From assembly GCA_946549475.1 (NCBI GenBank), contig CAMNQO010000001.1, positions 1 to 47,188 of the forward strand: DNA of 47,188 nucleotides, in the 5' to 3' direction. The position numbers and the translations under genes were made by a program. The DNA is from an uncultured Bacteroidales bacterium. GTDB taxonomy: Bacteria; Bacteroidota; Bacteroidia; Bacteroidales; UBA932. Below, piece after piece: positions 12,440-29,441 of this stretch; the first letter of the stretch is position 1, and every line of letters begins with the position of its first letter. The notes under the pieces were generated by a model, which saw only the letters and a list, made by a program, of their open reading frames with translations, was not told the origin of the DNA and made no database searches.

Positions 12440-13759
12440 TTATTTTCTTTTCAGTTTGAACTCGATGGGTATCGTCAATGTCGAGCGGACCTTCTTGCCG
12501 TGCATGCGTGCCGGCCGCCATTTGGGCGAGATGCTGACCACATTCACGGCCGCCTCGTCCAGACGCGAATCGACGGAGCGCACCACGCGCACTTGGCTGA
12601 CGCTGCCGTCCTTTTCAATGATGAAGTTGACCTGCACCATCCCCTGAACGCCCTCCGCAATGGCGCTTTCGGGATATTTCACATAACGGTAAACCCATTC
12701 CTGCATAAAACGGTCGATCTTGGGAGAGCCCAGAAATGCCGGGGGGACATCGCAATCATAATAGCCGTAAACGATGTCTTCCTCCTCCCGGGGCGTCTCC
12801 CGGGGCTCGAGAAAATCGATTTTCCCGGCATTGGAAGCCTGGTCGCGCACGAAATTGTAAAGATATTCCGACTGGAGTTCCATGTAGTCCCAGTCCAACT
12901 CTTGCGGTATATCCCGGGGGGTGTTGTGGCTGGAATACTGCCCGGTGGTAAAGAGCACCGCCGGTATCTCCTTGGCATAGAAGGCCCGGTGATCGGAGGG
13001 ATATGGCTCCTGCGAGGTCAGCACGGGCTTGACGGGCTGCAAGTCACGGGAAGTCGCCTCGACGGCCCGGTTCAGGTCGGCATTGGAGGCGGTATAGGCA
13101 TAAAAACCTTGGCTGCCGTAACCCAAAATGTCGAGGTTGATCATGAAATCGATGTCCTTGACATAGTCGAAACTGCGGTTCAGGAAATACCAGGCGCCCG
13201 CAAAAGAGTCACAGCCGGCTCCGAAGGCAATGAAAAGGATGCTCTTCTTGAACGCGCCCCCCGTCGCGGCAATATGGCGGGAGAGCGCCAGCAGGGTGGC
13301 CAGACCGGAGGCGTTGGCGTTCGCTCCGGGATAAATCACCTCCTCCTGCTCGCCGTCCCGCATCATCTGATAGGCTCCCAGATGGTCAATATGGGCTCCG
13401 ATGACGATGAAACGGTTGCGCAACTGGGGGTCGGACCCGCCCAGAATACCGATGACATTGCGGGAAACCAAGGTGTCCTTTCCGCCTTGAATGCCGAAGA
13501 CATCCCCTTCCGGACCGGTCAGCATCTCCAGACCGGCTTTCTCCATTTCCCGGTAGATCCAGGCGGCCACATCTTTCTCGCCGGGAGAGCCGGCCTTGCG
13601 TCCCCGGTGGACGGGGGAACAGATATACGACACATCCGCTTTCAGCGCGGCGACGCCTTCGGAGTCGTAGAACTCTTCGTAAGAGGCCCCGTCCCGATAC
13701 TGCGCCTGCAGAAGAGGGGCCGCCAGCAGAAGACACAGCAGGGAAAGCGTTATTCTCAT
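12440..13759 (-). CDS. M28 peptidase-like domain fused to a C-terminal TonB_C domain
   Basis: Signal peptide LLQA-Q; M28 fold motifs RNVIG, GAHIDH, NLD, SDH; TonB_C YPESA...GVQG.V.V.F.IEKDG...LDEAA...KWRPA...PIEF. Confidence 0.85.
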
Positions 13760-18435: not shown

Positions 18436-19392
18436 ATGAAAAGATTATTTCTCCTGCTTTCCCTCTCCTGCCTGTGCGCCTTGGACCTTCATGCCGAAAT
18501 GGAACCCGACGGGACCTATCTTTACGCACAGAAAGACGGCCAGGACCTGTATCTGGATGTATATGCCCCGTTCCCGGACAGCGACACGACCGTGCAAATA
18601 GACAGCGTCACCCTCGTCAGCAAGCCGGCCATCCTCTTCGTGTTCGGAGGGGGTTTCAAGGAAGGCTCGCGGGACGCCGCCGCTTACAAGCCGTGGTTTG
18701 AGGCGCTGTGCAAAGACGGCTACCGCGTCATCTCCATCGACTACCGCCTGGGGCTCAAAGATGTCAAGAAAATGGGCATCGCCCAGCGCAATCTGCTCGA
18801 CAAGGCCATCCACATGGCAGTCGAAGACCTCTACAGCAGCGTACTCTTCCTGCGGGAAAATCAGGCGGAACTGGGAATAGATACCGACAATCTCGTGCTG
18901 GCCGGCTCATCGGCGGGAGCCATCACCATCCTGCAGGCCGACTATGAACGGGGCAACCGCACGGAATATGCGGCGGTCCTTCCGGAAGATTTCCGTTTCG
19001 CCGGGGTGATGTCCTTCGCCGGAGCCATCTACTCCACCCACGGGCCTGTCCAATACAGCCACTCCGCTCCGGCACCCACGCTGTTCATGCACGGGACTGC
19101 GGACAAACTGGTCAATTACGACCAGATCGTCTTTTTCAACATCGGTTGGTTCGGCTCCAGCCGCCTGGCGGAGCGTTTTGACAAACTGAACTATCCGTAC
19201 ACCTTCCTGCGATTCAAAGACCACGGACATGAGATTGCCGTCGCGATGACCTACACCCTGGAAATACAAAAAGAATTCATCCTCACCAGCGTGCTCAAGA
19301 AAGTCCCCCGCCGTCTGGACATCCTGGTTGACGACCCCCGCATCGAAGCCCCCGCCATCTGGAGGATGGGACCCGATGAACTCTACAAATAA
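18436..19392 (+). CDS. Exported alpha/beta hydrolase (esterase/lipase)
   Basis: Signal peptide; FGGGF oxyanion motif, DYRL, GSSAG nucleophile elbow, HGTAD, GHE. Confidence 0.9.
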   Translation: MKRLFLLLSLSCLCALDLHAEMEPDGTYLYAQKDGQDLYLDVYAPFPDSDTTVQIDSVTLVSKPAILFVFGGGFKEGSRDAAAYKPWFEALCKDGYRVISIDYRLGLKDVKKMGIAQRNLLDKAIHMAVEDLYSSVLFLRENQAELGIDTDNLVLAGSSAGAITILQADYERGNRTEYAAVLPEDFRFAGVMSFAGAIYSTHGPVQYSHSAPAPTLFMHGTADKLVNYDQIVFFNIGWFGSSRLAERFDKLNYPYTFLRFKDHGHEIAVAMTYTLEIQKEFILTSVLKKVPRRLDILVDDPRIEAPAIWRMGPDELYK

Positions 19393-19410
19393 TTGAACAG
19401 TATTCGCAGC

Positions 19411-19445
19411 AAAAAGGCCGGCACCTGTATTGTGCCGGCCTTTTC
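19411..19445. terminator. Bidirectional intrinsic terminator
   Basis: AAAAAGGCCGGCAC-ctgtatt-GTGCCGGCCTTTT between the convergent hydrolase and multi-barrel genes. Confidence 0.9.
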
Positions 19446-19464
19446 TGTTTGACGAATCCACGCC

Positions 19465-22400
19465 TTAGAAGATGAATACGGCGGAGACGGAAACCTCGTT
19501 CGGGGCAATGAACCACTTCTGGCTCTTGGCCGTCGGGGTCAGGAAGCGGGAATCCTCGTAGTTGGTGAAGAACTTGTGACCGGCCCAGCCGCTGACGCCG
19601 AAGTCGAGGTTGAACCACTTGGTGATCAGCACGGAATAACCGAATCCGAGACTGGCACCCAAAGCCGTACCCTCTTCGGGAGTCTTGAACCAGGGGACAC
19701 CGCCCGTACGGTAATTCTTGAACTGGGCGTCGGCACCGATCCACCAGCCGGCGAAGGAATACCAAGGCCACCAGCGGGCACCCATCGCAAAGCCGCGCTG
19801 GTTCTCCTGGAACTGGCCGGGCACACCCTTATTGAGCGTCCAGGGGTTGTATTTGACCTTGCCTTCGATAGTCCAATGACGGGCCACCTCATACTGCATC
19901 TCCAGATTGATCGTCCCGAGATTCAGCCAGGAAAGAAGGTTGGTTGACAAGGCGAAACTGCGGTAGTCCTTCTCGAAACGCTCTTTCTTGCCGTCCGGCA
20001 CATATTCGGTCGCCTTCTTCCAGTTCTTGCCGCCGAAGTTGTAGGAAACACCGGCATTGATGGTGGAAGCGAAAGCAAAACCGACATTCTTACCAAGCGT
20101 ATTGCTCTTGAGGCAATAGAGACGGCCGTCCGCAAACAGACCAAATTCCTCATCGAGATGATAATTGACGAACAGACCGGCGCCGGCCGTTAGGTTGTTG
20201 GCAAATTTGGCGCCCGTCACCTGGTTGGTGCGGATAAAGCCGCTGTGCGCATACGGGATGAGATCCCACTTTCTCTCAGGATCGGGCCGCATGAAAGTAT
20301 TGAGCGCATCCCACATCAGGTCCGCATGCAGATAGCCGAAGGACAGGACGCTCTGGTACATATCGTTACCACGGATGTTGCCGCCGACCGTACTGGCACC
20401 CGGCCTGGCCGTGTCGAGCCACTCGGAGAAAGAACCGGCCTGCAAACCGATACGGCCTCCGAAATGCGGGGAGAACCATTTTCCGAAAGTAAACTCGGCA
20501 TTGCCCGTAGGCGCCGTATTGGCTCCGGCGCTCTGACCGCCCTCGGCTGCCATGGTCACACCGCCGGAAAGGCCGATAAACCAGCCCTCGCGGAAGTTTT
20601 TGAGGACATACTGATTCTCGGTCCCTTCGGTATAGGACTGCCAGTAGTTCTTGTTGAGGTCGTAGGAAATACCGGCGAACAGGGACGTAATGACGGGCAG
20701 CACATACGGCTGACGCACAAAGCGGCTGCTCATCGTCGTGAAACGAAGGTCAGCGAAGATCTTGAGGTTGTCGAGGACGCGGATGTTGTTGATCAGACCG
20801 GCGCCATAGGCAAACTCACGCTTGAAGGACATGCCGCTCATATAGAAATTCTGCGCAAAGCCGAAATGGCCGTAAGGGACGACGCTCCAGATACGGTCGC
20901 GCTTGTAGCCGCCGAAGGTATTGGTCGCCTCCCACAGGAAGTCGGAGTGCAGGTAGTAAAATTTGGAATTGTACTTGTAGTTGCCAAACTGGTCGGGGCC
21001 GGTCGTTACGCCCTGACGGGGCTGCTTGACCGTCTCGCTCAGGCGGGAACCCAGGACACCGATGCGGTTTCCAAAGTACGGCGTGTACCATTTTCCGAAG
21101 TTGAAGTCAAAACCAAATTCAGCGCCGATTTCAGACTGGCTCTTGAGTTCACCCAGCATGTTGGTTCCGATGGCCGCCGTGATAAAGATGTTGTCGAACA
21201 GACGGTTGGCCAGGAACGGAGGGAGGCCGGTCTCTTTTTTGGCCGATTTGTCTCCGGAAAGTTTGCCGGTACGGTCCAGCGTATTGAGACGGTTGGCCGT
21301 GCGGAATCCGCTCACACCGAGATTGTAGGAAATACCGGCAGAGAGCGTTGCACCGAACGCTTTGTCGTCCGACTTGCCGACAGACTCGCCTTTGAGGGAG
21401 AAGAGACGCAGGTCGGCGAAAGCGGTCCAGCGGGAAGAGAGGTTGAAGTTGTTGAGGAGGCCCACGCCGGCTGCGAACTCACGCTGGCGCTTGCCGCCGA
21501 CATAGGTGGTGTATTGTCCGGTGTGGACATAAGGAATCAGATCATAGACGCGATACTCATCGTAGCCCATGACGGTATTGAGCAAGTTCCACAACACATC
21601 GGCGTGGACATAACCGAACTGGTAGGCGTTCGCATACATTTGCTTGCCCAGATAGGTGGCGGGTACGGAAGACATGCCGCGACGGGGAGCCGTCGTCCAG
21701 TCCTTGACGGTACCGCGCTGGTAACCGATACGGCCGGCAAACTGCGGGGAAAGCCACTTGCCGATGGTGATGTCCGCAGCCCAGCCGGCATCGCCGTTGA
21801 AACCGTCCTGTCCGCCGTCCATCAGGAGGGAAACACCTCCGGCCGCACTGAGGAACCAGTTGTCCTTGAACTCGTTGAGTGCATAAGCATAACTGTCCGG
21901 AACATCCTTATAGGAGGTCCAGTAGTTCTTGCCGATATCGTAAGAAACACCGGCCAGGACCGTCGCCATGCCACCATTGCGCTGCGAGGCAAGCATGCGC
22001 TTGCGGATGAAGTTGGCACGCATGTCGATGAAGGCATTCAAGCGGTTGGACAGACGGAAAGTGTTGATGAGACCGTAACCCATCGCATACTCCTGCTTAT
22101 AGGCACTGCCCGTATTGTAATATCCCTGGATGACACCGAACTGATAGTAAGGTATGATGTTCCAGAAGCGGTTGAAATCGTACTGGGTAAAGGTGTTGTT
22201 GAGGTTCCACAGGAAATCCGAGTGGACATAGAAATACTTGTTCTCGAAACGGTAGCGGTCCTCATTGGCCCAGCGCACCACATTTTCGGCCAGACGGGGA
22301 CGCGCGTCGCGCACATGCTCGACCATCGAGGCCCCCTGGACACCCAGACGGACACCGAACTGGGGAGAGATCCACTTGCCGATGTTCACATCGATCGCCG

Positions 22401-25155
22401 GGGAGAATCCGGACATGTTGATGTGCTGCTCGGCCAGCATGTTGACGCCGCCGCCGACACTGATAAAGAGATTTTCCCACAACTTGTTGTCCAGGAAAGG
22501 AGAAGGTCCGGTGACGATATTGACCTTGAGCGGATCGTTGTACCCGCTCTTGCGGAACTGGGCAGCGGAAGTCCAGTTGCCCACGCCGCCGATGTTGTAG
22601 GTCAGACCCGCCAACGCAGTACCCTTATAGCCGAACGCCCGGCCCCTGCCCAGCATATTGGCATTGAGGACCGTCGCACGCAGGTCGAGGAAAGCCCCGA
22701 GCTCGGAGGTGATCCGGATGGTGTTGATCAGACCGAAGCCGGCGGCGAAACCGTCGCGGTACAACTTGCCCTGCGCGGTTTTGACATTGTAGAAACCGGT
22801 ATGATAATAAGGAATCAGGGACCAGATCCTGTCATAACGATAAGGATAGAGCAGGTTCGTCAGATCCCAGAGGATATCCGCGTGGAAATAGTCGGACTTG
22901 GCATTGAGCTGATAGGCCGGAGCGCCGCGCAACTCCCCGAGGGTCGTCGCCAACTGGGGACGGGGATTGTCAAGCCACTCTTTGAGGCTGCCGCCCTGAT
23001 AGCCCAGACGCACACCGAAATCGGGAGAAAACCACTTTCCGAGCGACACCTCATAAGCGGGAGCGGCAATCAGGTTCATACCCTGGGAGAAGCCCTCTTC
23101 GAAGAGCAGATTGACACCGCCGCCCAGCTGGACGAAGATATTGTCTTTCCAACGGCCGAAGACCGGCTGGCGGACCGCCGTCGTGTCGGTGTGGCTCTTG
23201 AAGTAATTGACCTTGCCCAGATCGACGGTGGCGCCGACCATGGCATTCAGCGCGATATCGGAGCCGCCATACTCCGTACGGCGGGTAATCGTATTGTCGA
23301 TGAAGGTCGAGCGCAAATCCACATACAGGCTGGTACGCCGGCCGACGCGGAAACTGTTGATGAGACCGAAGCCCATCACATAGGAGCGCTTGTATGACTG
23401 TCCGTTACGGGGAAGATAAGAACGCATCACGCCCATGTGCGTGTAGGGAATGAGACTCCACACATTGTAACGGTCGTAATGGAAGGTGTTGGTGGCATCC
23501 CAGAGGAAATCCGCGTGGACATAGCCGTAATTGAAAGAATTGACATAGTAGGTCTTGCCATTCTTGTCTTCTACGAACTCTACATCCAGCGTCTGGTGGG
23601 GCTGCAGGGAACGGAACTTGTAACGGTAGCCCTGATAGCCCAGGCGGATGGCCGTCCAGGGGGTAAACCATTTACCCACGGAAAGGTCGAGGGAAGGCGT
23701 CACACCGGCTGCGCCGAGCGTACTCTTGGGCTCCCAAAGCAGACTGCCGCCCGCCCCGAACGAGATAAACCAGTTGTTCTTCATGGCAGAGACGACATAG
23801 GGCGCAGGGCCGGTCGGCGTCCTGTCTTCATAAAGCAACTCGAACGAGGAAGACTCGGGGAAGTCACGGCGCCCGATGTTGTAGGCGAGACCGGCGAACA
23901 TCGTCCCCTGGAAGGCGAAACTCCGGTCTTTGCCGAACATTTCACCCTTGGCGGCCATCGCACGGGCGTCGATGAGGAGATCGAGCTTGTCGATGAGCCG
24001 GAAATTGCCCAGAAGGCCGACACCGCCGCCCATGCCGTTGATATCGGTATTGGTGCCTGTCGGACGGGTGTTCATGTATCCCAAGTGAATGTACGGGGAG
24101 ATGCCAAACGGACGCTTGCCGGAGGCAATGAACGAATTGACGACATCCCACATCAACTCCGCATGGAGGTAACTGTAATCCATCTTGTTGAGATACATCG
24201 GCTGTCCCTGGAACATGCCGGCGATGTTGGACATGCCCGGACGGGGGGCGGCCAGCCACTCGGACAACATGCCGCCGGTATAACCGATGCGGCCGCCGAA
24301 GTACGGCGAGAACCATTTGCCGAGTACGATGTCGAACGAGCCGGTCGCATTGCCGTTGAAACGCACCTGCTGCCCGCCTTCGGACAAAGTGGAGACACCG
24401 CCCATGATGCCCACATACATATTGTCGAAGAAAGAATTGTGGACGAGGGAACGGTCGCCGGGACGGCCCACGTCGGAAGTCCACCAGCTCTTGCCGATGT
24501 TGTAGGCCAGACCGGCGTTGGCCGTGGTCAGCAAGGCTCCGCCCGAATAGGGCCGTTTGACATTGCGGCCGTTGACAAAAGTGGCACGCAGGTCGATGTA
24601 GAGGCTGACGGCATCGCTCAGACGGAAGTTGTTGATGATACCCAGACCGGGCGCATACTCACGCTTGACGGCAACCCTGTTCATATCCCAGGTATGGAAC
24701 ACGCCCATGTGTACATAAGGGATAAACTCATATACGCGGTCGCGGGAATAACCGGCTACGGTATTGCTGAAGTTCCACAGAAAATCGTTGTGGACATAGC
24801 CGTAACGGAGCGACAACTCGTTGGTGTCCATCCCCTTGAAAACCGCAGGAACAGTAAGCCTGTGACGGGGCTCCTTGACATATTCGGAGAGGAGACCGCC
24901 CTGATAGCCGATGCGGAAACCGAACTCGGGGGAGAACCATTTGCCTACGCTGAAATCATATCCTCCTTTCACCTTGCCGTTGAAGAAAGGCTGATTGTCT
25001 TCCGTCAACATCGAAATACCACCGCCGGCATTGATAAAGAAATTATCCCACAGGGCGTTAATCTTGTATTTTTTCTCTTGGGCTTGGGCATATGGTACAG
25101 AAAAGACCAGCACCCCTGCCAGCAAAAGCCCGGATATCTTTTCAAATAGTTTCAT
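19465..25155 (-). CDS. Giant multi-beta-barrel outer-membrane protein: 8 OmpA-type barrel repeats plus a C-terminal DUF3575-like barrel
   Basis: Signal peptide AQA-Q; eight ~204-222 aa repeats with DN.F....GG / GKW.SP.FG.R.G..G / H.D.LW / PY.H.G / G.G..N / D.R / G..Y..G; final ~165 aa FALSTNLL...GTINL...YNPW...RWWPW...EEG...GYS...NLDFG; ends in Phe. Confidence 0.88.
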   Translation of the reverse strand: MKLFEKISGLLLAGVLVFSVPYAQAQEKKYKINALWDNFFINAGGGISMLTEDNQPFFNGKVKGGYDFSVGKWFSPEFGFRIGYQGGLLSEYVKEPRHRLTVPAVFKGMDTNELSLRYGYVHNDFLWNFSNTVAGYSRDRVYEFIPYVHMGVFHTWDMNRVAVKREYAPGLGIINNFRLSDAVSLYIDLRATFVNGRNVKRPYSGGALLTTANAGLAYNIGKSWWTSDVGRPGDRSLVHNSFFDNMYVGIMGGVSTLSEGGQQVRFNGNATGSFDIVLGKWFSPYFGGRIGYTGGMLSEWLAAPRPGMSNIAGMFQGQPMYLNKMDYSYLHAELMWDVVNSFIASGKRPFGISPYIHLGYMNTRPTGTNTDINGMGGGVGLLGNFRLIDKLDLLIDARAMAAKGEMFGKDRSFAFQGTMFAGLAYNIGRRDFPESSSFELLYEDRTPTGPAPYVVSAMKNNWFISFGAGGSLLWEPKSTLGAAGVTPSLDLSVGKWFTPWTAIRLGYQGYRYKFRSLQPHQTLDVEFVEDKNGKTYYVNSFNYGYVHADFLWDATNTFHYDRYNVWSLIPYTHMGVMRSYLPRNGQSYKRSYVMGFGLINSFRVGRRTSLYVDLRSTFIDNTITRRTEYGGSDIALNAMVGATVDLGKVNYFKSHTDTTAVRQPVFGRWKDNIFVQLGGGVNLLFEEGFSQGMNLIAAPAYEVSLGKWFSPDFGVRLGYQGGSLKEWLDNPRPQLATTLGELRGAPAYQLNAKSDYFHADILWDLTNLLYPYRYDRIWSLIPYYHTGFYNVKTAQGKLYRDGFAAGFGLINTIRITSELGAFLDLRATVLNANMLGRGRAFGYKGTALAGLTYNIGGVGNWTSAAQFRKSGYNDPLKVNIVTGPSPFLDNKLWENLFISVGGGVNMLAEQHINMSGFSPAIDVNIGKWISPQFGVRLGVQGASMVEHVRDARPRLAENVVRWANEDRYRFENKYFYVHSDFLWNLNNTFTQYDFNRFWNIIPYYQFGVIQGYYNTGSAYKQEYAMGYGLINTFRLSNRLNAFIDMRANFIRKRMLASQRNGGMATVLAGVSYDIGKNYWTSYKDVPDSYAYALNEFKDNWFLSAAGGVSLLMDGGQDGFNGDAGWAADITIGKWLSPQFAGRIGYQRGTVKDWTTAPRRGMSSVPATYLGKQMYANAYQFGYVHADVLWNLLNTVMGYDEYRVYDLIPYVHTGQYTTYVGGKRQREFAAGVGLLNNFNLSSRWTAFADLRLFSLKGESVGKSDDKAFGATLSAGISYNLGVSGFRTANRLNTLDRTGKLSGDKSAKKETGLPPFLANRLFDNIFITAAIGTNMLGELKSQSEIGAEFGFDFNFGKWYTPYFGNRIGVLGSRLSETVKQPRQGVTTGPDQFGNYKYNSKFYYLHSDFLWEATNTFGGYKRDRIWSVVPYGHFGFAQNFYMSGMSFKREFAYGAGLINNIRVLDNLKIFADLRFTTMSSRFVRQPYVLPVITSLFAGISYDLNKNYWQSYTEGTENQYVLKNFREGWFIGLSGGVTMAAEGGQSAGANTAPTGNAEFTFGKWFSPHFGGRIGLQAGSFSEWLDTARPGASTVGGNIRGNDMYQSVLSFGYLHADLMWDALNTFMRPDPERKWDLIPYAHSGFIRTNQVTGAKFANNLTAGAGLFVNYHLDEEFGLFADGRLYCLKSNTLGKNVGFAFASTINAGVSYNFGGKNWKKATEYVPDGKKERFEKDYRSFALSTNLLSWLNLGTINLEMQYEVARHWTIEGKVKYNPWTLNKGVPGQFQENQRGFAMGARWWPWYSFAGWWIGADAQFKNYRTGGVPWFKTPEEGTALGASLGFGYSVLITKWFNLDFGVSGWAGHKFFTNYEDSRFLTPTAKSQKWFIAPNEVSVSAVFIF
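20030..25060 (-). repeat. Eight diverged intragenic tandem repeats (~612-666 bp period)
   Basis: The Gly codon of the GKW motif starts at 24945, 24321, 23676, 23040, 22380, 21762, 21096 and 20484. Confidence 0.9.
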
Positions 25156-25172
25156 CAATGGTTTCGTCTTTT

Positions 25173-27179
25173 TTACAGGTCAAACGCTTCGTCCATTTGG
25201 GCATTCAGGCCATAAGTTTTTATCAAAATCGAAATCTCCGGATCGAGATTTCCCCGATTCTTGTAGGTCGCATCCTGACGACAGGCGTCAAGATAGCATT
25301 GGACCGCGTTTTTGTTGTCTCCCTGACGGGAATAAACCAACGCCAGCAGATAGTTGACCTCGGCGGTCCTTTTCATCGCTTCGAGGATGCCCAGCGCACT
25401 GAGATTGCGGTCCAGCGCCACATAACAGACAGCCAGGTTGTAGTCGTCCGGATAGTTGCGCAGGATCTCGATGGCATTGTCATAGTCGCGGTCCTTGAGA
25501 TATTCCAATCCTCTCTTGTACACCGTATCCAACTCGGTCGTCACGACCGTATCCTTGACCATGCCTTTGCGATGGAGGTGGAAATTGAAATTCACCGTAC
25601 GGAGTTTGGGATAGAGATTCTCCTTTATATAATTATAGTAAGGCTGGCCTTTGAGTTTGAGTTCGCGGGCATCCGGACTGGCCACCGGAAGAACATCATC
25701 GGAATAGGCCTGCTTGTTATCATCCGTCAGGATGGAATCCTTGAGGACCAGGTCGTTGAGCAACGGCCAATTCTCGGCTTGGGCGCGGGAACGGAAACGG
25801 ATCTTCATGATGGCGCGCTCCTTGTGGATGTTGCCGAACTCGTCCACGGAGAAACCTCGGTTGGCGTTGATGGAATCCACGACATGGTTCATATAGCCGT
25901 CAAAGTACGTGGAAACCGACTGGGAACGCTTGCGCGAGAGCATGTCGTTGGCCTGGTAACTGCCTTCGGGGGAGCAGTGCGCCGTCACGACCACGCTGTC
26001 CAGGTCGAAATCCTGACTCTGGAGGATGTTGTGGATGGTCTTGCGAATCTGCTTGATCTCGTCGGCGTTCTTGTTCATCGCCGGATCCACATCATAGCGG
26101 CCGACCTTGAAGTCGATGTTGAAAGAAGTGTTGGCTTCGGCACGGCGATAGATAACCTTGTGCAGATAGCGATCCTGCTGCTTGTAAAGCTGGGCGGCGG
26201 AACTGATGTTGTACTCCAGCGAGTCGGTACGGGGCACGCGGTAGATACGCTTGCCGTTGTTGTCGTAGATGTTGCCGGCGACATAGATGAGAGCCTTTTT
26301 CAATTTGGGGCGCGTCGTAATCGTCTCCACATAGTCGCAGACGAAATTGCCGTCTTCGCTGCGGACGACCGAATCGATGCGGATGCCCGTGCGGTCGTCG
26401 GGGTCGCGCATCACGCCGGCTTTCTGTTTTTTCTTGCGCAATCCTTTCAAGGCGCAACGGTTGCTGTAGTGGTCGATGGCTTCCTGGTCGGTGACCGAGT
26501 ACCAGTTTTCCAGTTCTTCGACCACCTTGGAGGAATCCGCCTTGGTATATACATAAGAGGTATCGTACTTCAGGCTGTAAATCTCGGGCATGTTGCGCTC
26601 GACGAAAACCTCAAGCGTATGTCCGCCTTTGTACTTGCCGGAGTCGGCAATCTCCTTCATCAGGCGCTCGTAGAGCTGGTAGCCGCGCAACTGGCGGATG
26701 CGGAACACCTCGCCGGTGATCACGATCTTTTCCAGATAAGAAGTGTCGAGAACCGCCCCGTTGTCCGCGATCAGATAGAGTTCGGGGGTCAGGTGCATCT
26801 GCCACTGGTTGTCCAGCATCACGGAAGGAACGACCACTTCAAAGCCCAGATCGATCTTTCCGCGGCGCTCGGCCACCCGTTTGAAACGGACCGTAATGGT
26901 CGCGGCGTCCAACACCTCGGTCGCCACCATTTCGCCCGTCTCATCGTCCAGGATGGCGTTCATCAACACCATATCATTGCCTTCTTCATCCTTGACAATA
27001 ATCGTCTCCGGCCGTTTGACTGTATCAATCTCAGACGGTTTTACATTTTCCTCACTGGGGAGTCGCAACTCCACTTCGTCATTCCTTTCTGCAAGTTTGG
27101 CCGCTTTGTTAGATGTACTGCAACCAAATACCAACAGAAATAAGGCTACTCCAGTGCTTATACAAGCAATACGTTTCAC
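25173..27179 (-). CDS. Lipoprotein with a DUF3868-like N-terminus, OmpA_C-like domain and C-terminal TPR
   Basis: Probable GTG start at 27179 (a promoter box at 27208-27215 argues against ATG 27230); lipobox VFGC; IDFKVGRYDVDP...N..EI...SPEGSY.AN..LS..RS...ENW..L...LYPKLR; TPR tail. Confidence 0.78.
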   Translation of the reverse strand: MKRIACISTGVALFLLVFGCSTSNKAAKLAERNDEVELRLPSEENVKPSEIDTVKRPETIIVKDEEGNDMVLMNAILDDETGEMVATEVLDAATITVRFKRVAERRGKIDLGFEVVVPSVMLDNQWQMHLTPELYLIADNGAVLDTSYLEKIVITGEVFRIRQLRGYQLYERLMKEIADSGKYKGGHTLEVFVERNMPEIYSLKYDTSYVYTKADSSKVVEELENWYSVTDQEAIDHYSNRCALKGLRKKKQKAGVMRDPDDRTGIRIDSVVRSEDGNFVCDYVETITTRPKLKKALIYVAGNIYDNNGKRIYRVPRTDSLEYNISSAAQLYKQQDRYLHKVIYRRAEANTSFNIDFKVGRYDVDPAMNKNADEIKQIRKTIHNILQSQDFDLDSVVVTAHCSPEGSYQANDMLSRKRSQSVSTYFDGYMNHVVDSINANRGFSVDEFGNIHKERAIMKIRFRSRAQAENWPLLNDLVLKDSILTDDNKQAYSDDVLPVASPDARELKLKGQPYYNYIKENLYPKLRTVNFNFHLHRKGMVKDTVVTTELDTVYKRGLEYLKDRDYDNAIEILRNYPDDYNLAVCYVALDRNLSALGILEAMKRTAEVNYLLALVYSRQGDNKNAVQCYLDACRQDATYKNRGNLDPEISILIKTYGLNAQMDEAFDL

Positions 27180-27304
27180 GACAAAAGCCTTTTTTACATA
27201 TAACTTACAAAGATATGAAGAAAAATCCAAACCACAAAAATTTCCCTATTATTTCTGAATATCAGTGAAAATGATTATTTTTGTACAATCATAAAAAAAA
27301 GTCT

Positions 27305-27556
27305 ATGAACAATACGGAACTTGACAACTGGTGGGCTTCCATTCCCATTTCGCAAAAAGAGCGGATCGCCCGCAAATCATTCACCAAAGCACATCCCGGC
27401 GAGACGGTGGACGAAGCACAAATCCTGTACCCGGCCTGCACGAGATGGTGGGGAACCTTGGATGAAGCCGGAAAAAACAAGATTTACGACCACTGCGTCA
27501 ACCGGCACGGCCTGGCCGAAAAAGAGTGGAACAGCGGCGACCCTTACGGGGACTAG
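27305..27556 (+). CDS. Small hypothetical protein (83 aa)
   Basis: ATG after an A-rich leader and a TATTTTTG box (27276-27283); fills the gap between two minus-strand genes. Confidence 0.75.
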   Translation: MNNTELDNWWASIPISQKERIARKSFTKAHPGETVDEAQILYPACTRWWGTLDEAGKNKIYDHCVNRHGLAEKEWNSGDPYGD

Positions 27557-27581
27557 TGCCGGATCCTGCGCACTGCAACAA

Positions 27582-29441
27582 CTACAGCCGCTCCTTTTTC
27601 ACTTGTTCGACGCCCTCCAGACGGGCAATGGCCACGACCGTCTCATTGAGTTCGGTGACCGAATGGACGGCAAAGCAGATGTCGCATACAAAGATTTCAT
27701 CTTTCGCCTGCGTCGTCAGGCTGGTCATGGGCAGTTTGTGCTCCTCGACGATACAGTGAATGATATCCCGCAATAAATGATAGCGGTCCACGGCCGTGAT
27801 ATGGATGTTCACCGGATAGGTGACATTCGGCTGGGCCTCGAAATCGGTCACGGAAACGATGGTGTTGCCCCGGGCGGAAGCGATGCTGAGAGCTTCTTTG
27901 CAATTGCGCTTATGGATGGAAATCTCGCCGGTGGCATCCTTGAAACCGATAATCTCGGCACCGGGCATCGGACGGCACAGCGGACACAGGCGGTAGCGGG
28001 GTTGGGGAAGGGTGCGCAGATAGGCGGAAATCCGCTTGCGGGCCTTGTAGGAAACGGCGGCGTCCAGCCAATCCGGCGTCGGATGGATGTGGGGGGCCGT
28101 CCCGACCAGCACCCGGTCTCCCCGGTGAAGGACGGTCTTGACGCTCACCAGCAGGCCGTTCACGCGGGCAAATTGGGCATGGTCGCCGATGTCGGTATGT
28201 ACCTCGTAGGCGAAATCGAGGACCGTAGCATCCTTGGGCAGGGTGATCGAACGGCCTTTCGGGGTGAAGACGACGATATCTTCGTTGAACAGGGAATGCT
28301 GGATGCCCGGCATCATCTCCTCCGACTCCTTGGACAGTTCCCGCAGTACCTCCGTGAGGCGTTGCAGCCAGATTTCCTTTTGCTCGAGGACGCAACCGAA
28401 GTAAGACTGCCGGCGCATGTTTTCCGATGATACATGGAACTCTTCGATCTGACCGTAGGGATTGAGCAGACGGAAATGGAGCGAACGATAGCCGTTGGCC
28501 TTGGGCTGCGCCATATAATTGACAAAGCTGCCCGTCTGCTCACTGTATTTGTCCGCCAGGATGGAATAGATTTTCAAGACAATGTCTTCCTCGCTGATGT
28601 CCCAGCCCGTCAGCCGGCAGACCTCGTCGCGATTGAAAGATGCGCGGATGTAATGTTTGAAAGGAACGTGGTAGAAGTCGCTGTTCTTTTCCTGCATTTC
28701 ACGCCAGATGCTGTAAGGCTTGCGATAGCGTATATCCCAGGTCACGGCACCGCATAAGGCCTGTTCGACGACTCCTCGGGCCTCGTTCATAAAGGTCTCC
28801 ACCGCCCCTTTCGTCCGTTCGCGGTCCTCTGCCAGCATCCAGGAGACAAAACTGTTTTCCTCCGGATTGAGAAAGCGGAAAGCCAGGTTTTCCAGTTCGG
28901 ACTTGACCAGGAAAAGGCCCAGGCGGCCGGCCAGCGGAGCGAAAAAGAATTGCGTCTCCGAAGCGATTTTCCACTGCTTCTCCGGCCGCATGGAGTCGAG
29001 GGTCCGCATGTTGTGCAAGCGGTCCGACAATTTGAGAATCAGCACGCGGACATCATCCTGGACCGAGCCCAGAATATGCTGGTAATTGTCCACCTGGTCG
29101 TTGTTGCGCTTGGTGACCGCCGCCACCAGAAAAGCGACATCGTCGCCGAAGAGCGAGCGGATTTCTTCGATTCCATGGGGCGTATCCTCCACGACATCAT
29201 GCAAGAGAGCCGCACAGATAATATTCGCGTCGGTCTGCAACATTTCGCGAATCACCACCAGGGCGACATTGACGGGGTGAACGATATACGGCTCACCGTC
29301 CTTGCGTTTCTGCAGACGATGGGCCTGCTCTGCCAACAGATAAGCCTGCTCGATTTTTCCCCTTTCCTCCGCCGTCAGGCTTTCCGGCAGCGCACGCGTC
29401 AGTTCCTCGTGTACCCGTGCAATCATCTCTTCAGGATTCAT
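27582..29441 (-). CDS. Long RelA/SpoT homolog (HD, degenerate synthetase, TGS, ZFD, ACT)
   Basis: AH..QKRK.GEPYI.HP, ALLHDVVEDT, KLSDRLHNMRTL; PKANGYRSLH; VFTPKG...LDFAYEVHT.IG (TGS); ACT-like C-terminus. Confidence 0.9.
   Translation of the reverse strand: MNPEEMIARVHEELTRALPESLTAEERGKIEQAYLLAEQAHRLQKRKDGEPYIVHPVNVALVVIREMLQTDANIICAALLHDVVEDTPHGIEEIRSLFGDDVAFLVAAVTKRNNDQVDNYQHILGSVQDDVRVLILKLSDRLHNMRTLDSMRPEKQWKIASETQFFFAPLAGRLGLFLVKSELENLAFRFLNPEENSFVSWMLAEDRERTKGAVETFMNEARGVVEQALCGAVTWDIRYRKPYSIWREMQEKNSDFYHVPFKHYIRASFNRDEVCRLTGWDISEEDIVLKIYSILADKYSEQTGSFVNYMAQPKANGYRSLHFRLLNPYGQIEEFHVSSENMRRQSYFGCVLEQKEIWLQRLTEVLRELSKESEEMMPGIQHSLFNEDIVVFTPKGRSITLPKDATVLDFAYEVHTDIGDHAQFARVNGLLVSVKTVLHRGDRVLVGTAPHIHPTPDWLDAAVSYKARKRISAYLRTLPQPRYRLCPLCRPMPGAEIIGFKDATGEISIHKRNCKEALSIASARGNTIVSVTDFEAQPNVTYPVNIHITAVDRYHLLRDIIHCIVEEHKLPMTSLTTQAKDEIFVCDICFAVHSVTELNETVVAIARLEGVEQVKKERL

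Follow-up and report, generated by a model that had tools for sequence, protein, structure and literature searches.

The stretch analysed here (the window) covers positions 1 to 47,188 of contig CAMNQO010000001.1 (GenBank assembly GCA_946549475.1) from an uncultured Bacteroidales bacterium, and its minus strand carries the gene for P0001, a polyprotein in which eight OmpA-type repeats (R1 to R8) are followed by a DUF3575 domain. The whole of P0001 is predicted to form nine small outer-membrane barrels. On balance, we favour the interpretation that it is an OmpA that was split and amplified: DUF3575, together with a lipoprotein (P0011) encoded directly upstream, would anchor it to peptidoglycan in trans, and its main job would be envelope tethering.

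Polyprotein gene and its domains

The open reading frame (ORF) of P0001 runs from an ATG at 25155 to a stop codon at 19465-19467 without internal stops; an in-frame TTG one codon before the ATG gives an alternative length of 1,897 aa. A first reading of the sequence (the earlier note) had described an uninterrupted ORF of about 1,896 aa with a single signal peptide, eight repeats of about 210 aa with characteristic terminal motifs, and a ninth, unrelated domain ending in Phe, and all of this was borne out. Its interval was also right, whereas the strand (minus) and the upstream gene for a lipoprotein with OmpA_C-like and TPR domains had been missed.

In a hydropathy scan, the only hydrophobic 19-residue windows above 1.5 fell in the N-terminal signal peptide, and a polyprotein processed at internal signal peptides was rejected because the hydrophobic segment lies at the N-terminus only. 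The computed mass of the mature protein is 210 kDa. All eight terminal motifs were found, closing R1 to R8 at residues 221, 428, 647, 856, 1075, 1280, 1501, and 1708. The repeats are 196–221 aa long and share 23–43% identity with one another (BLASTP E ≤ 4e-14 in 28 of 28 pairs); K58, R67, H109, D173, and R175 are invariant across all eight. Taken singly, none of the repeats matched Pfam or NCBIfam, and a sequence search of the PDB returned nothing below E 0.5.

The last 188 aa of P0001 matched DUF3575 (PF12099) with 93.7 bits against a cut-off of 21.1 (100.8 bits for the domain alone) and were unrelated to the repeats in profile comparison (HHalign probability 2.6%). DUF3575 is the most conserved domain of the fused protein, with 63% of positions invariant. 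OmpA_C (PF00691) had no match in P0001. Classification as an ordinary OmpA was rejected for this reason, and because the chain ends in DUF3575.

The polyprotein ORF is real and intact in independent assemblies. Contigs of 33 kb from two other studies (runs X3 and X4) cover 19465-27700 unbroken, the only listed indel lying outside the ORF, and the other two of four runs cover the gene in pieces. With these contigs and four full-length homologues of the same 8+1 layout (62–84% identity), a chimera was rejected; the divergence of the repeats makes collapse or expansion during assembly unlikely. RNA contigs from four runs contained just short scattered pieces over the polyprotein and lipoprotein genes, and they give neither an expression level nor a shared transcript.

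Predicted structure of the barrels

AlphaFold2 was applied to R7-R8-DUF3575 with 22 sequences, and R1 to R6 were assigned by homology. The model (pLDDT 82.7, pTM 0.73) had eight long strands in each domain. R7 superimposed on NspA with Z 17.7 and a root-mean-square deviation (rmsd) of 2.4 over 152 aligned residues; it also matched OmpW (Z 15.3), OmpA, and OprF, and resembled a Dot/Icm-associated porin (Z 18.2). The DUF3575 region matched CarO (Z 13.4) and Opa60 (Z 10.1). Comparison of the three-domain model with large barrels was poor (Foldseek TMq ≤ 0.21; rmsd >14 Å), and its Foldseek matches were too poor for a fold to be assigned from them.

R7, R8, and DUF3575 are thus predicted to be three separate 8-stranded barrels and not one ring, the choice that the earlier note had posed. 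A single giant barrel was rejected on the separate modelled barrels, the linkers of 25–44 aa between the barrels of P0001, and the rmsd above 14 Å.

Upstream partner lipoprotein

The P0011 gene lies on the same strand, 17 nt before the start of P0001, and has a likely GTG start at 27179 and a lipoprotein signal (LVFG-C37). Its model (pLDDT 75.2, pTM 0.51) matched OmpA_C domains and TPR repeats; against OmpA_C, a Foldseek E of 8e-5 and a VIA Z of 11.6 (rmsd 2.7, 102 aligned) were obtained, and P0011 is predicted to have the OmpA_C fold. The pocket motif S-P-E-G…N..L…R was invariant in 33 of 33 aligned lipoprotein sequences.

A complex of the lipoprotein with DUF3575 was predicted with a score of 0.40, the best control reaching 0.01; the runs agreed in at least 38% of contacts, and the partner had a pLDDT of at least 76. 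The mark used for such scores was passed by 116 of 157 solved complexes and by 2 of 215 mismatches, and 18 of the 157 solved complexes, along with both mismatches, passed at 0.60 or below. This gives weak support to the suggestion that the DUF3575 barrel binds P0011. We regard the P0011-type lipoprotein as the usual companion of DUF3575 and as central to the mechanism.

The Bacteroidetes promoter consensus, TTTG-N19-TAnnTTTG, had three matches in the window, against 0.51 expected by chance, one of which is listed with the other features in Table 1. Scans of the window for sigma-70 promoters and terminators gave results at chance level. D-S/T-x, the O-glycosylation sequon of Bacteroidota, occurs eight times in P0011 and twice in the polyprotein. 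A paralogue of P0011 with 43% identity is encoded on a 2.9-kb contig of the same genome (G000:C213:822-2804, plus strand) with no DUF3575 seen adjoining, and lipoprotein loci L041, L045, and L047 likewise have no adjacent DUF3575.

Table 1 Features of the polyprotein and lipoprotein genes in the window
Feature	Position	Strand	Remarks
Polyprotein ORF P0001: signal peptide, eight OmpA-type repeats, DUF3575	19465..25155	minus	1,896 aa
Predicted Sec signal peptide, residues 1-25 (…AQA/Q)	25081..25155	minus	From sequence and hydropathy scan
Repeat R1	24493..25080	minus	Odd type
Repeat R2	23872..24492	minus	Even type
Repeat R3	23215..23871	minus	Odd type; corresponds to first barrel of six-barrel relative P0006
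Repeat R4	22588..23214	minus	Even type
Repeat R5	21931..22587	minus	Odd type
Repeat R6	21316..21930	minus	Even type
Repeat R7	20653..21315	minus	Odd type; modelled as 8-stranded barrel of NspA/OmpW/OmpA fold
Repeat R8	20032..20652	minus	Even type; modelled with 8 strands
DUF3575 domain, C-terminal Phe	19468..20031	minus	Modelled as 8-stranded barrel; without CxxC loop motif
P0011, gene for the predicted partner lipoprotein (OmpA_C-like domain, TPR domain)	25173..27230	minus	685-codon ORF
OmpA_C-like domain of P0011 (peptidoglycan-binding fold)	25575..26144	minus	With helical insert
C-terminal TPR domain of P0011	25209..25535	minus	
Match to Bacteroidetes promoter consensus	27208..27238	minus	Just before likely P0011 start

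Gene neighbourhoods of fused and stand-alone DUF3575

Metagenome counts rest on the best 80 of 461 confirmed loci, of which 67 had a stand-alone DUF3575 and 13 a fused one, in agreement with the earlier statement that DUF3575 is normally a protein of its own. Wherever a fused locus had upstream DNA, the lipoprotein gene was directly upstream (12/12; 4/4 in genomes and 8/8 in metagenomes), these loci being kin. In the 8 metagenome loci it was preceded by dnaK, clpX, or other genes, i.e., at several chromosomal sites; the remaining 5 of the 13 start within the fused gene. This fixed pairing and the predicted OmpA_C fold of P0011 support anchoring in trans. Of 151 genomes of the family, 62 had the window-type lipoprotein gene.

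Stand-alone DUF3575 genes were found directly upstream of a lipoprotein gene in 26 of 29 other best genome loci, and the lipoprotein came next in 34 of the 56 stand-alone metagenome loci with room downstream. The gene order of fused loci (lipoprotein, then DUF3575) is the reverse of that of the stand-alone pair (DUF3575, then lipoprotein). In 20 wider regions, the DUF3575-lipoprotein pair was seen in 19 and type V pilin genes supported by Pfam stood alongside in 15, the pilin calls resting on 49 chosen ORFs; we refer to this arrangement as the pilus-head pair. Pilin families (FimA/Mfa1/Mfa2) were found neither among the scanned ORFs of the window nor in 9 scanned ORFs downstream of fused loci, and classification of the P0001 gene as a type V pilus locus was rejected, pilin genes being the defining feature. 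The CxxC loop motif was present in 67/67 and 18/26 copies of stand-alone DUF3575 and in 0/13 and 0/17 fused copies, the two sets overlapping in kinship.

A natural fusion of about 550 aa joins DUF3575 to OmpA_C in two close relatives (L119:6164-7810, minus; L120:6636-8288, plus). There are thus natural fusions at both links of the chain, barrels to DUF3575 and DUF3575 to OmpA_C, which supports a split OmpA. The L119/L120 fusion heads a cluster of lipoprotein-like genes.

An ordinary type V pilus locus, L097 (G000:C26:2431-10209, minus), occurs in the same genome as the window and encodes DUF3575, a DUF3868/OmpA-like protein, and Fimbrillin_C and Mfa2 pilins; its DUF3868 protein is homologous to P0011 (HHalign 98.4%). 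In L067-L069, a single-barrel OmpA-like gene is directly upstream of a DUF3575-lipoprotein-pilin operon, followed in two cases by a DcaP/Porin_2-like porin, an order that could represent a pre-fusion arrangement.

The window locus is stable among housekeeping genes (relA, gyrA). The slot downstream of the polyprotein gene (19363-19465) varies: in runs X3 and X4 it is occupied by 3,533 different bases, and in L003 (10771-14145) by a gene whose product, a lipoprotein of some 1,125 aa, has FN3/Ig-like domains. In L129, L131, L172, L174, L177, and L191, which belong to one sub-lineage (with dnaK upstream where the DNA extends), the fused gene is followed by one for an exported, coiled-coil-like helical protein of 230–300 aa that is absent from the lineage of the window. 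Elsewhere in the window, a RelA/SpoT homologue (27582-29441, minus) has a strong HD hydrolase domain and a weak match in the synthetase region (33 bits), and a fusion of Peptidase M28 and TonB_C domains (12440-13759, minus) is conserved in relatives.

Fused family and its single-barrel relatives

A whole-length search yielded 10 proteins among 5,916 candidates, including the four full-length orthologues. The gene is intact in L001 and L003 and split across two contig ends in L002 and L004; L005 has a 6+1 form at the same genomic site. Proteins of the type (barrel)n-DUF3575 exist with n = 2, 3, 4, 6, and 8, so that the number of repeats varies among homologues. The relatives of P0001 are Bacteroidia/Bacteroidales and, together with the sequencing runs, point to Bacteroidales of the ruminant gut. 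A metagenome scan using the four-barrel relative P0009 gave no matches.

The repeat profile matched 115 of 301 genomes of the family. Outside the genome of the window, the matches listed (13 others aside) were open frames of 220–529 aa, and the three that were scanned were all barrel plus OmpA (PF00691) proteins. Proteins of this kind, about 400 aa long, were found by the profile at E down to 1e-55, which upholds the earlier assignment of the repeats to the N-terminal barrel of Bacteroidales OmpA-like proteins; their genes often stand in tandem pairs or triples. These single-barrel relatives carry OmpA_C and the polyprotein does not, which again supports a split OmpA. So does their distribution: when searched with two queries, five draft genomes with the fusion yielded no single-barrel OmpA of this type, whereas one was present in 20 of 28 other genomes of the same genus.

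Division of the repeats into odd and even types was the best of the 35 possible 4+4 splits, with tree support of 87/63 and 82/54 for the two clades. In a quick tree, two-barrel relatives grouped with R7 and R8, and R3-R8 corresponded to the six-barrel relative. In the tree that gave the odd and even clades, the repeats of P0009 (four) and P0008 (six) each clustered by protein. From the two types and the grouping of the relatives, a two-barrel unit was probably duplicated in the branch of the window.

Unfused poly-barrels and origin of the fusion

When the repeat search was extended to the order, 78 of 401 genomes matched (55 rows beyond those listed), and at least nine genomes of four other families had long frames with multiple matches, encoding 5, 6, or 8 barrels without a fusion. 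All nine unfused poly-barrel ORFs examined stood in the order DUF3575, partner of about 670 aa, poly-barrel. This partner is homologous to P0011 over 444 columns (HHalign 98.7%), and an N-terminal CarboxypepD-like domain was present in 3 of 4 cassette partners scanned. A second cassette in the genome of the window, L124 (G000:C12:209-15146, minus), has a three-barrel protein behind a pilin cluster; its order is a long ORF with a partial DUF3575 match, seven lipoprotein-like ORFs (five with Mfa_like_1 matches), DUF3575, a partner of about 870 aa, and the three-barrel protein, a layout matched in L121.

The origin tree of the barrels took in single OmpAs from several families, as singles of one family could not address origin; its row singleF1_L006 is a Muribaculaceae sequence, outside the family of the window. 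The fused repeats fell into one clade (100/100) that lay within the single OmpAs of the window's family. Unfused poly-barrels grouped apart (100/99), and a single clade of all poly-barrels was not rejected by the approximately unbiased (AU) test (p = 0.104). Of the fused DUF3575 domains, 17 of 18 formed one clade (100/97) within the pilus-head type; P0021, a fused protein on a long branch, fell outside it (AU p = 0.40 for inclusion). One clade of fused and cassette types was rejected in the DUF3575 tree (p = 0.00016) in a test that excluded P0021, was run after the tree had been seen, and used LG+G4 only. The trees suggest a separate origin for the fused family, in which a resident OmpA barrel joined a DUF3575 of the pilus type, and two origins of barrel arrays with a DUF3575 partner are likely.

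Proposed mechanism and alternatives

In the proposed mechanism, eight OmpA-type barrels are chained to the DUF3575 barrel, which would bind the neighbouring OmpA_C-like/TPR lipoprotein and so fasten a patch of barrels to the cell wall in trans. The ancestral resident OmpA barrel may have lost its own wall-binding domain when it was joined to DUF3575 from a pilus-head pair, the two-barrel unit being then duplicated to eight. The main job would be tethering and ordering of the envelope over a large membrane footprint, with 32 variable outer loops possibly available for multivalent surface contact.

Several observations weigh against this mechanism. The model covers R7, R8, and DUF3575 alone. In P0011 the Asp of the usual GHTD motif is replaced by Ser, the Asp being kept in another protein of the same genome, and peptidoglycan binding is consequently not assured. 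The complex prediction is weak, and passes of this kind are more often wrong unless the guess was already likely. Support for the odd and even clades is modest, and three barrels occur in one relative. The genomes found with the fusion, five in all, are drafts (that of the window 64% complete) from close kin; they also contain genes for other OmpA_C proteins, whose N-terminal parts are unrelated, so that replacement of OmpA is only suggested. Finally, loss of fimX or pgmA is reported to lower fimA transcription in Porphyromonas gingivalis (PMC3436787), which would imply signalling besides anchoring if fimX/pgmA are the same pair. An OmpA_C protein of fusion-carrying genomes (L210:285-2090; L211:1338-2717) combines a long N-terminal part, beta-rich and of a different family from the repeats, with a linker that carries repeated V/R/K-D-T-V motifs.

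The best-placed alternative, possible though distinctly less probable than tethering, is a multivalent adhesin or receptor that replaced the pilins on the pilus-head pair, the 32 loops binding glycans, plant fibre, or cells and anchoring being secondary. The presence of type V pilins beside the unfused pair in most wider regions and their absence from the ORFs scanned downstream of fused loci would fit such a replacement, as would the outer segments, which are the most divergent parts both between repeats (22% identity versus 50% for strands) and between orthologues (41% invariant versus 56%) and are net basic in every repeat. In the literature, loops of P. gingivalis OmpA2 are described as mediating cell binding (PMC5300881), and avidity is proposed for poly-barrels in the main text of Solan 2021 (PMC8346858). 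Loop variability is usual in any barrel, however, and these loops, with 55% identity to those of the most distant orthologue, are not hypervariable. No binding domain can be recognised, the locus is stable among relA and gyrA, and nothing in the scattered RNA pieces points to high expression, although contigs cannot rank expression.

An unlikely alternative is that the pair of DUF3575 and OmpA/TPR protein is dedicated to helping its cargo through assembly or export, or to sensing the state of the envelope, the ninth barrel handing the chain to the β-barrel assembly machinery (BAM) in cis instead of serving as a permanent anchor. In its favour, the pair is found with pilins as well as with poly-barrels, two difficult cargoes that have little in common; the partner has a TPR domain; and the only true C-terminus belongs to DUF3575, the most conserved domain. 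An usher role has been suggested for PgmA (PMC7482747), and fimX/pgmA are reported to affect fimA transcription, as noted above. Yet the lumen of 8-stranded barrels of the OmpA type is generally too narrow for passage of a protein, every repeat retains its own terminal-strand motif, and the OmpA_C fold points to wall binding. Moreover, fimA alone is reported to build fimbriae without fimX and pgmA (PMC3436787). The adhesin and the assembly or sensing roles are not mutually exclusive.

We consider it very unlikely that the repeats serve as a set of small pores for diffusion, or as OmpW-like small-molecule receptors, fused only to fix stoichiometry: R7 resembles OmpW and the Dot/Icm-associated porin in fold and the repeats have diverged, but the five invariant residues are charged, as would be expected of a closed, OmpA-like lumen, and no transport or catabolic genes are linked to the locus in the window. 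An assembly artefact or one giant barrel is scarcely credible, nothing having been found in its favour and the intact independent contigs and homologues, the linkers, and the three separate modelled barrels standing against it.

More broadly, and only tentatively, DUF3575 may be a universal outer-membrane dock that connects any surface cargo to a wall-binding OmpA_C/TPR partner and into which barrel arrays were plugged at least twice independently, the ordinary OmpA of a rumen lineage having been captured, deprived of its wall-binding domain, amplified as a two-barrel unit to eight copies, and lost as a gene of its own. Should the dock reading be true, one 210-kDa nine-barrel chain and a lipoprotein would do the job of OmpA, and should the separate origin hold, the same three-part device would have evolved twice, which would argue for a real selective function. 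The fusion physically connects poly-barrels, DUF3575, and the OmpA_C/TPR partner of pilus loci, all of them little-understood components of the Bacteroidales envelope, and it offers a specific model of anchoring in trans that can be tested. The series with 2, 3, 4, 6, and 8 barrels is a ready test set for BAM insertion and for the function of pairs like FimX/PgmA.

Comparison with known systems

The fused type is closest in one respect to the type V pilus-head pair (DUF3575 with an OmpA_C-like/TPR partner of the DUF3868 type), with which the window shares the DUF3575 family and a homologous partner. It differs in its reversed gene order, the eight extra barrels on DUF3575, the lack of CxxC, and the lack of pilins after it. 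The head pair is probably FimX/PgmA of the P. gingivalis fim cluster, a lead taken from accession adjacency: a P. gingivalis DUF3575 protein found in vesicles lies two UniProt numbers from FimB (a table in PMC12937337). FimA polymerisation and fimbriae are described as proceeding without fimX and pgmA, with PgmA located in the outer membrane (PMC3436787), and the functions of both as incompletely characterised (PMC7482747). In the parts consulted of PMC12937337, PMC10470040, and PMC10434189, DUF3575 is a table entry only. No description of this fusion or of the cassette was found in the open literature searched, and subscription papers, such as the 2016 type V pilus paper, may already report the DUF3575/OmpA pair.

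With Bacteroidales OmpA-like proteins (P. gingivalis OmpA1/OmpA2, the Pgm6/Pgm7 type), likened here by architecture class, the repeats share the family of the N-terminal barrel. Those proteins have OmpA_C in cis, whereas P0001 has none in cis and eight OmpA-type barrels per chain. Heterotrimers have been predicted for the P. gingivalis proteins (PMC5300881), which, with the tandem pairs and triples of OmpA genes, fits a repeat unit of two types.

The nearest known architecture is that of the poly-8 proteins. As presented in the text of Solan 2021 (PMC8346858), Bacteroidetes have chains of 2–11 tandem 8-stranded barrels, a nine-barrel form included; the first poly-8 superfamily comprises 289 proteins from Prevotella/Bacteroides in 28 families; and function and the route of BAM insertion are left open. 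Multivalent reception and serial insertion by BAM, both put forward in the earlier note, are already open ideas there, and no follow-up to this 2021 multi-barrel prediction was found in the literature searched. P0001 shares with the poly-8 proteins tandem 8-stranded OmpA-like barrels, one signal peptide, occurrence in Bacteroidetes, and variable barrel number; its linkers of 25–44 aa agree with the class median of more than 20 aa given there, and R7 and R8 as modelled supply the two or more full-length tandem barrels that define the class. The repeat family is common to P0001 and the unfused poly-barrels found here, although the repeats and DUF3575 of P0001 group apart from those of the unfused cassettes. 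The main difference is that the ninth barrel of P0001 is an unrelated DUF3575. The string "DUF" does not occur in the main text of Solan 2021, where neither gene context nor DUF3575-ended members were met; its figures and member lists may include some. The architecture that the earlier note did not recognise is therefore published as far as nine-barrel chains go, and the count of nine barrels is not new; what is new is the fusion to DUF3575 in its gene context, the fixed partner, the graded natural series, and a probable second origin.

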